From a virus (Monodnaviria > Loebvirae > Hofneiviricota > Faserviricetes > Tubulavirales): DNA of 8,509 bases. This document shows, one piece after another, positions 666 through 1,001 of this stretch (its first letter is position 1; the number at the start of each line of letters is the position of its first letter). A program made the translations under genes and the position numbers. Under the pieces are notes generated by a model. The model did no database searches, was not told where the DNA came from, and worked only from the letters and a program-made list of their open reading frames with translations. The stretch is taken from IMG/VR virus record IMGVR_UViG_2648501784_000014; one strand, given 5' to 3'.

Positions 666-854
666 CTATTTTTTTTGTGTAATTTCATTTTTCGAAATCA
701 TATCTTGTTTTGCATCGTTTAAATATTCATCTATCAGATAATTCACGATCTCCGACCATTTTGTGACTTTTCCTGTTTTGGCTGTGATATCTACGGCTGC
801 TCTTTCTATTCTCAGATATCTCTCGTTGCTTATACCAATACTTTTCCTGCTCAT
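666..854 (-). CDS. Small DNA-binding regulator, ribbon-helix-helix (Arc/CopG-like) pattern; putative phage repressor
   Basis: 62-aa ORF with ATG at 854 and a GGGAGA Shine-Dalgarno about 8 nt upstream on the - strand. Sequence KSIGISNERYLRIERAAVDITAKTGKVTKWSEIVNYLIDEYL fits the strand, helix, G-turn, S/T-x-S-E-helix layout of ribbon-helix-helix proteins. Transcribed divergently from rep. Confidence 0.65.
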   Translation of the reverse strand: MSRKSIGISNERYLRIERAAVDITAKTGKVTKWSEIVNYLIDEYLNDAKQDMISKNEITQKK

Positions 855-885
855 TTTTTGTTCTCCCGTTCTTTTGGCTTAGTTT

Positions 886-980
886 AATGCAACATAGCAA
901 AATTGCATTTGTGCACAATTGCACTTGTGCATCTGGTTTTTTTGTGTATTATTTTTGCAAGTTTGCACAATTGCACACGG
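886..980. promoter_or_regulatory. Divergent promoter/operator region with iterated TGCA-core repeats and a 13-bp direct repeat
   Basis: Eight TGCA cores in about 90 bp (at 888, 904, 912, 921, 928, 956, 964, 972). Exact 13-bp direct repeat TGCACAATTGCAC at 912-924 and 964-976. Candidate rep promoter: TTGTGC (925-930), 16-nt spacer, TATTAT (947-952). Candidate regulator promoter on the - strand: TTGTGC (complement of 913-918) and TATGTT (complement of 891-896). Confidence 0.45.
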
Positions 981-1001
981 ATAAAGCATTTGGGGGGATT
1001 A

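Follow-up and report, generated by a model that had tools for sequence, protein, structure and literature searches.

The divergent regulator gene and the box array upstream of rep

The window analyzed here is the whole 8,509-base stretch of IMG/VR virus record IMGVR_UViG_2648501784_000014 (Tubulavirales), which consists of a circular genome of 8,135 bp plus a terminal overlap of 374 bp, and the subject of this analysis is the module immediately upstream of its replication gene rep, namely a 62-amino-acid (62-aa) regulator gene transcribed away from rep and the 147-bp gap between the two (855-1001). The genes are arranged as in a filamentous phage (P2 gpA-type rep, small coat-like genes, and pIII-like, Zot-like, and GspD-like secretin genes), and a megablast search of the whole genome against the phage collection returned no match. 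A preliminary description of this DNA, made from its letters alone, had proposed a small open reading frame (ORF) with a good Shine-Dalgarno sequence divergent from rep, and both features were recovered (Table 1). Comparison with a relative from Escherichia coli JNE25-003 supports a real gene, because synonymous changes dominate: 17 of 189 nucleotides differ, 15 of them at third positions, giving 16 synonymous changes and 1 non-synonymous codon change. The rep gene starts with GTG at 1002, after a run of G at 992-997; two relatives carry ATG at the same position, and similarity begins there.

The gap is marked by an unusual accumulation of TGCA, which occurs eight times (888, 904, 912, 920, 928, 956, 964, and 972), as counted in the preliminary description, whose chance expectation of 0.35 was of the right order (base composition predicts 0.43 copies, shuffled sequences give 0.45, and the density over the whole genome gives 0.67). 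Eight copies never arose in 20,000 shuffles (maximum 4), and the gap has the highest TGCA density among the 147-bp windows of the genome. The exact 13-mer TGCACAATTGCAC, which spans two adjacent boxes and had been placed at 912-924 and 964-976, was found at these two positions and nowhere else in the genome. The boxes keep a strict 8-bp phase, with 888, 896 (a degenerate AGCA), 904, 912, 920, and 928 in one register and 956, 964, and 972 likewise 8 bp apart in a register offset by 4 from the left boxes. This periodicity was also evident statistically, with six of the seven TGCA-to-TGCA distances being multiples of 8 (0 of 200,000 random placements match) and a z-score of 4.9 for the autocorrelation of the gap at lag 8. 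The nine 8-mers centered on the box cores read, in order, aaTGCAac, atAGCAaa, atTGCAtt, tgTGCAca, atTGCAct, tgTGCAtc, ttTGCAag, ttTGCAca, and atTGCAca. Against the JNE25-003 relative, in which the regulator is 98% identical and the DNA of the rep region 87% identical, nine substitutions fall within 884-979 and none of them in the 36 box-core positions (P = 0.011). The 52-bp spacing of the two 13-mers corresponds to about five helical turns; looping is not claimed on this basis, as the spacing of the clusters varies from 24 to 60 bp in relatives.

A weight-matrix scan, whose calls are predictions with weak scores, placed the best candidate promoters of both genes back to back in this array, in agreement with the earlier proposal that the repeats overlap candidate promoters. 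The two predicted -35 hexamers lie 6 bp apart within the central palindrome, each overlapping one box. The corresponding transcription starts are predicted near 959 (plus strand) and near 884 (minus strand). Most relatives retain, in their middle cluster, a CAAG whose opposite strand supplies the TTG of the rep-side -35, and this CAAG forms part of the best-scoring rep-side promoter in about 14 of 24 gaps.

Table 1. Coordinates of genes, sites, and predicted elements (window positions, except for the last row)
Feature	Position	Strand	Details
dif-like attP	320-352	+	AGTGCGCATAA-TGTGACACGCG-TTATGTTGAAA; also at 8455-8487
56-aa hydrophobic ORF	419-589	-	Downstream of the regulator gene
62-aa regulator gene	666-854	-	ORF; predicted ribbon-helix-helix, RstR-6/RstR-env family, PHROG 2503
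Regulator Shine-Dalgarno	862-867	-	GGGAGA, 7 nt ahead of ATG; read from sequence
Left box cluster	888-931		Six boxes, 8-bp period; over both predicted -35 elements and the regulator -10
Predicted regulator promoter	891-918	-	-35 TTGTGC 918-913, 16-nt spacer, extended -10 TGcTATGTT 899-891; top minus-strand score, 8.6
First copy of exact 13-mer	912-924	+	TGCACAATTGCAC, two adjacent boxes
Central near-perfect palindrome	912-931		TGCACAATTG/CACTTGTGCA, 20 bp; inverted repeat, 90% complementary; contains the back-to-back -35 hexamers
Predicted rep promoter	925-952	+	-35 TTGTGC 925-930, 16-nt spacer, -10 TATTAT 947-952; top plus-strand score, 8.6
Right box cluster	956-975		Three boxes (956, 964, 972); over the predicted rep transcription start
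Second copy of exact 13-mer	964-976	+	TGCACAATTGCAC; 52 bp from the first copy
rep	1002-3002	+	P2 gpA-type replication endonuclease, 666 aa; Pfam Phage_GPA 5.9e-49
dif-like sites in E. coli chromosome L001	2125, 10022, 17919		Tandem prophage copies and unrelated third inovirus

Predicted fold of the regulator

The 62-aa protein matches PHROG 2503, a family of unknown function, at 1e-28 and belongs to a small family (clustering at 50% identity leaves 155 representatives from a set of 1.84 billion proteins); Pfam, NCBIfam, and Rfam returned no family for either the regulator or the rep-regulator gap. An AlphaFold2 model of the monomer, built on a 14-sequence alignment, reached a mean predicted local distance difference test (pLDDT) score of 91, with an extended segment at residues 1-9 followed by helices at 10-27 and 33-61, which is the strand-helix-helix topology of the ribbon-helix-helix (MetJ/Arc) superfamily. 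A dimer was modeled as two copies fused through a Gly/Ser linker of 30 residues, using an alignment of 38 rows constructed likewise, and gave strands at 4-8 and 96-100 (residues 4-8 of the second copy), a domain pLDDT above 90, and a predicted template modeling score (pTM) of 0.73. The fused two-copy model thus takes the form of a predicted ribbon-helix-helix dimer with paired N-terminal strands, and the two models fit the ribbon-helix-helix pattern that the preliminary description had read from the sequence and proposed to examine by structure prediction. The model shows structural similarity to solved members of the superfamily, the best matches being TraM N-terminal domains; weak matches include the antitoxins MazE6, TacA, and ParD. 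A profile of the family compared with PDB sequences matched ParG (1p94) at E = 0.01 over 21 residues of helix 2, and one UniRef entry labels an identical protein "Relaxosome protein TraY."

A few family members (P0089, P0097, and P0098; 130-147 aa) are natural tandem duplications with two regulator domains per chain. Such proteins would be single-chain pseudo-dimers.

Homology to CTXphi RstR alleles

The preliminary description had likened the layout to rstR-rstA of CTXphi, and the comparison of proteins goes further, to homology. The window protein is 41% identical to RstR-6 (P0235, 63 aa; E = 8e-17) and, by tblastn, 45% identical to the "environmental" RstR (RstR-env; E = 5e-8). The identification of P0235 as rstR-6 was made by a protein search followed by exact matching of published primers on contigs: the rstR-6 primers, listed in the supplement of PMC11509585, match the ends of P0235 exactly, and P0235 is divergent from rstA (Rep_trans) and rstB and next to a CTXphi pIII gene. 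Its gap carries ATGCA-type boxes in three clusters, the conserved CAAG included. According to PMC11509585, lux reporters revealed that each tested rstR allele, type 6 included, lowers its own ig-2 promoter more than those of other types. The RstR-env sequence gave no match to the rstR primers in that supplement, so RstR-env is not among the eight alleles tested there. A 2025 survey described the RstR variants of different CTX-like groups as being without detectable mutual similarity, and our literature search found no paper linking any RstR to a ribbon-helix-helix fold.

Two features of rstR-carrying records were also observed. The record of CTXphi IB1617 (GQ466611; L002 1414-1674) has an ATG at 1480 with a Shine-Dalgarno sequence that gives a 64-aa protein aligning with the family; judged by this alignment, the deposited 86-aa "environmental RstR" is probably over-extended, with its 22 extra codons lying over the GCATGC boxes of the gap. 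Among rstR-6 contigs, L067 and L068 (1941-2000) have an rstR-rstA gap of 60 bp, vs 137 bp in L066 (1864-2000), the deletion lying between two repeated CATTAA-GCATG boxes and removing the middle cluster, and presumably the rstA promoter as well.

Relatives, box motifs, and exchange of the cassette

A tblastn search of phage records recovered homologues in CTXphi/pre-CTX rstR, Vibrio anguillarum VAI1/VAI2 ("RstR-like"), Vibrio cyclitrophicus inoviruses, several saliva inoviruses, and If1, and all annotated records have the regulator gene facing away from the replication gene across a gap of about 130-150 bp. The 54 IMG/VR loci examined represent 20 distinct types, and in 19 of these the regulator stands beside a divergently oriented ORF of about 350 aa or more; the partner Reps are of three unrelated families (Phage_GPA, Rep_trans, and G2P). 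Every relative carries an iterated motif of its own in the same gap, mostly in two or three clusters: TCACAA / GTGA in Dulem virus 56, GTGAGCA in Dulem virus 52, AATGAA in Dulem virus 53, ATACATG in the Vibrio 10N phages, GCATGC / CGCATGCG in VAI2, RstR-env, L030, and L062, CTCATGAG in L060, and GTTAAC / TTTAAC in L010. The mean autocorrelation over 22 gaps peaks at lag 8 (z = 1.8), followed by lags 2 and 16 (z = 1.2 each), with coding controls at about 0 to 0.5. Absence of the repeats from related phages with the same regulator had been named in the preliminary description as grounds for abandoning its proposal; this situation does not arise, as relatives carry boxes that track the regulator in the same gap.

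Regulators with the ribbons KSIGIS, KSIGIN, and KSIGIT all stand beside TGCA-type boxes (window, L012, L013, and L015), and regulators whose ribbons differ have no boxes in common. This joint change of ribbon residues and boxes across relatives is indirect evidence for sequence-specific DNA binding through the ribbon, which we regard as putative.

Several loci separate the regulator from the Rep. L010 (E. coli AST205) has the same Rep accession as the 99.5% prophage match described below and the same secretin, yet the stretch from the small hydrophobic ORF to the rep start encodes another family member, of 60 aa and unannotated, and has GTTAAC/TTTAAC boxes 8 bp apart, and the sequence of L010 parts from that of the window exactly at the rep start codon. 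L015 has a regulator 82% identical to that of the window and GTGCAA boxes, but a Rep_trans Rep. The "MTESAIL" Rep, the same as in L010, is also paired with regulators of the "TTVRIN" and "KSYNVP" types and their boxes, making at least four alleles. Comparison of these loci shows regulator and gap changing together while the rep backbone is conserved, as an exchangeable cassette.

L010 further displays three small regulator genes stacked on one strand upstream of rep (1817-2528; NZ_AP043614): the 60-aa family member next to rep, which is unannotated in RefSeq, then a 71-aa RstR-env-like "GDTTVRIN" protein, and then a 63-aa "MPTKHIND" protein, neither of the latter two with a rep gene of its own. 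This stack may be an immunity array against several phage types. Downstream of the regulator gene, the window has two copies of the motif TTGCTnTTnTAGCAATC (577-591 and 629-645), which also recurs at both borders of the extra L010 cassettes (~1779-1826 and ~2307-2356), where a stretch of about 48 bp is duplicated; cassettes may be exchanged by recombination at this motif. If1 carries an unannotated 63-aa family member (MATPKRTTMAIVAERK...), 41% identical to the window protein, in its "major intergenic region" (U02303 ~5143-5310, minus strand; L003 ~1486-1677, plus strand in the locus).

Integration at dif and other features of the phage

An E. coli chromosome (L001) holds a 99.5% identical copy of the phage as two tandem prophages adjoining hipBA, followed by a third, different inovirus, all at dif. 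At the left prophage border, the host dif arm GGTGCGCATAA and the phage-derived side of the 320-352 site are joined in a hybrid attL. Because of the tandem prophages and the hybrid attL at dif, the phage is temperate and dif-integrating, as the preliminary description had supposed from the dif-like attP. This attP keeps both dif arms and has a center of 11 nt (TGTGACACGCG) instead of 6, and the dif-like site of one relative has another 11-nt center, TGTGTTACACG.

The third prophage of L001 encodes (18396-18701) a 62-aa protein, MPTKHINDVQW..., of another family, divergent from a II/X-type Rep and accompanied by TCTAAG/CTTAGA boxes. At only 15% identity, this protein was left out of the family alignment. 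A published rstR-calc primer encodes MATKHIKDST, and by this resemblance the MPTKHIND protein may belong to the RstR-calc family. Elsewhere in the window, the pIII-like gene (4076-5503) has a long Gly/Ser linker, with about 110 codons of near-perfect GGGS/GGGN repeats at 4700-5040; the gene is shorter in the L001 copy (1158 vs 1428 nt), and this stretch may be a hotspot of length variation.

Interpretation and competing explanations

The interpretation that we consider probable is that the 62-aa protein is a ribbon-helix-helix dimer of the RstR-6/RstR-env family that acts as an immunity and replication repressor by coating 8-bp boxes over back-to-back promoters. Competing explanations differ in what they make of the boxes and of the small protein. 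Iterated short repeats beside rep typically mark an origin, this gap is the principal non-coding DNA adjoining rep, and no origin of the phage has been mapped, so that the TGCA boxes could be origin repeats or a nick region bound by Rep, and not operators of the small protein. This is very improbable, because the boxes track the regulator and not the Rep, as seen in L010 (the same Rep accession, yet GTTAAC boxes), in the "MTESAIL" series, and in L015 (TGCA-type boxes beside a Rep_trans Rep), and this layout is found beside Reps of three unrelated families. Still less credible is an antitoxin whose toxin would be the 56-aa hydrophobic ORF and whose autoregulatory operator would be the boxes. 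Many ribbon-helix-helix proteins are antitoxins, such proteins occur among the weak structural matches, and a small membrane-like ORF does follow on the same strand; this ORF, however, is unchanged in L010, where the regulator cassette is swapped, is absent from relatives, and is separated from the regulator by a 76-bp gap with a hairpin (610-625). Both explanations were rejected, since the boxes change with the regulator alone, and the small ORF downstream does not change with it.

Two further explanations assign the protein another role. An architectural or accessory factor resembling TraY or TraM, aiding replication initiation or Xer integration/excision with transcription control secondary or absent, would suit the TraM domains as best structural matches, the TraY name in UniRef, and the homologue in If1, which is not known to lysogenise. 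We consider it improbable, given that the boxes lie over the best promoter candidates of both genes and not at attP, about 550 bp away, that homologous rstR alleles are reported to repress the rstA promoter, and that a break of the cassette at the rep start codon is consistent with a unit of promoter and operator. A more serious competitor, though still an unlikely one, is a throttle on copy number or output in chronic non-lysogenic infection, in which the protein would exert negative feedback on rep and take no lysogeny decision. The gap has no LexA box or other induction signal, and the family occurs in If1 as well as in numerous small, circular inoviruses of saliva and metagenomic origin, all of which would agree with such a throttle. 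It differs from the repressor interpretation in biological role only; the phage does integrate, as tandem prophages at dif, and a series of alleles on one Rep backbone is the signature of immunity specificity.

Several observations weigh against the repressor interpretation itself. Its binding, expression, and immunity parts draw all their phage-specific support from computation. With respect to the fold, Pfam and NCBIfam returned no family for the 62-aa regulator, leaving it without a curated ribbon-helix-helix match; Pfam ParG matches to relatives are below threshold (E 0.055-0.14); a Foldseek search against the PDB returned nothing significant (best E-value 2.4, weak matches of the same kind); and the dimer model depends on an artificial fusion. 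With respect to the operator, each predicted -35 matches only three of six consensus positions, a stricter promoter consensus scan called no promoter in the gap, and the top-scoring promoter lies elsewhere in about 10 of 24 relatives. The box spacers are not notably AT-rich (24 of 36 bases, equal to the region), unlike those of ParG, and the number of dimers is tentative, at one for every 8-bp box as opposed to one for every 16 bp. As regards lifestyle, a homologue occurs in If1, a phage not known to integrate. The type-6 repression in the text of PMC11509585 is stated collectively for all alleles. LexA-box-like sequences, which the preliminary description had suggested looking for, were not found: 855-1001 contains no CTG-N10-CAG, even allowing one mismatch. 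An induction route is therefore missing, with neither a LexA box nor an antirepressor, and the term "switch" is thus unsupported; a true switch, whether by bistability or by induction, is unproven.

Proposed mechanism and implications

Under the repressor interpretation, each dimer would set its two-stranded beta-ribbon (residues 4-8, KSIGI) into the major groove at one 8-bp box, centered on the palindromic core TGCA with a consensus of about wTTGCAca. The dimer fold is supported in silico, and the contact of ribbon and box is putative. Dimers on adjacent boxes, 8 bp apart, would bind cooperatively and coat 888-931 and 956-975; this coating, with one dimer per box, is suggested by the palindromic 4-bp core and by the precedent of ParG at O_F and of MetJ. 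The left cluster would then cover the divergent -35 hexamers (913-918 and 925-930) and the regulator -10, and the right cluster the start of rep transcription. Filled boxes would silence rep, and thereby also replication and virion production by a same-type phage, whether resident or incoming, and higher occupancy would also reduce the regulator's own synthesis. Regulator and gap would form an exchangeable specificity cassette giving type-specific immunity, as rstR alleles do in CTXphi; the exchange of the cassette is apparent from the comparison of loci, and the immunity itself is putative.

Such a module would provide uncharacterised dif-integrating filamentous prophages of E. coli with a concrete, testable immunity module, whose regulator has so far been annotated as a hypothetical protein or left unannotated. 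The analysis also assigns a predicted fold and operator layout to the RstR-6 and "environmental" RstR alleles, which serve in typing cholera phages. With its series of alleles on a single Rep backbone, the family offers a compact repressor/operator set for studying how DNA is read by a short beta-ribbon and could help to predict which filamentous phages are able to coexist in one cell. A bolder and more tentative proposal, for which we would claim a modest chance, is that the family is a natural library of orthogonal ribbon-helix-helix repressor/operator pairs, in which the outward ribbon residues 5, 7, and 9 (S-G-S here) set the 8-bp box, cassettes are swapped at the rep start codon whatever the Rep family, and orphan stacks as in E. 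coli AST205 extend immunity to phages not carried. The box variants of such a library would be TGCA here and GTGA, GCATGC, GTTAAC, CATGAG, AATGAA, and others in relatives.

Comparison with known systems

Tandem arrays of short boxes bound by ribbon-helix-helix proteins have precedents outside the filamentous phages. MetJ binds tandem 8-bp met boxes; it needs a corepressor, and its sequence is unrelated to that of the window regulator. The omega protein of pSM19035 recognizes heptad repeats with a period of 7 bp and is likewise unrelated in sequence. Closer in layout is the O_F operator of ParG (TP228), which has eight degenerate ACTC tetramer boxes with 4-bp spacers in mixed orientation, bound cooperatively by one dimer per box (PMC3130281). 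The fold, predicted for the window protein, an 8-bp box period in clusters over a promoter, and a weak sequence match (E = 0.01) are what ParG and the window module have in common, whereas ACTC is non-palindromic with AT-rich spacers and the window core TGCA is palindromic with spacers of ordinary composition. ParG is moreover the centromere-binding partner of ParF, nothing of which is seen here, and membership of the ParG family is unsupported (Pfam below threshold).

Among filamentous phages, YPO2273 of YpfPhi / CUS-1 (Yersinia pestis / E. coli K1), compared here by description only, is a small gene at the rstR position of a dif-integrating enterobacterial inovirus; it was called RstR-like, with its role "awaiting experimental demonstration" (PMC4266046). 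The best-studied RstR alleles, El Tor and classical, encode longer proteins that are described as lacking detectable similarity to other RstR types. The nearest systems are RstR-6 and RstR-env of CTXphi and pre-CTXphi, which share with the window a homologous protein, a gene divergent from the replication gene, a similar gap size, integration at dif, and a regulator and gap that form an allele-specific cassette on a conserved rep backbone; for RstR-6, the likeness extends to three clusters of short boxes (ATGCA-type) in ig-2. They differ in that the window phage has E. coli as its host, a Rep of the P2 gpA type vs RstA (Rep_trans), and TGCA as its box. LexA co-regulates the rstA promoter in CTXphi, where a LexA box serves SOS induction, whereas none was found in the window gap. 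Overall, the module is most likely an RstR-type repressor/operator cassette of an E. coli dif-integrating inovirus, and hence a known kind of device, in which the fold assignment and the 8-bp box layout are modestly new for the RstR-6/RstR-env class of rstR alleles.

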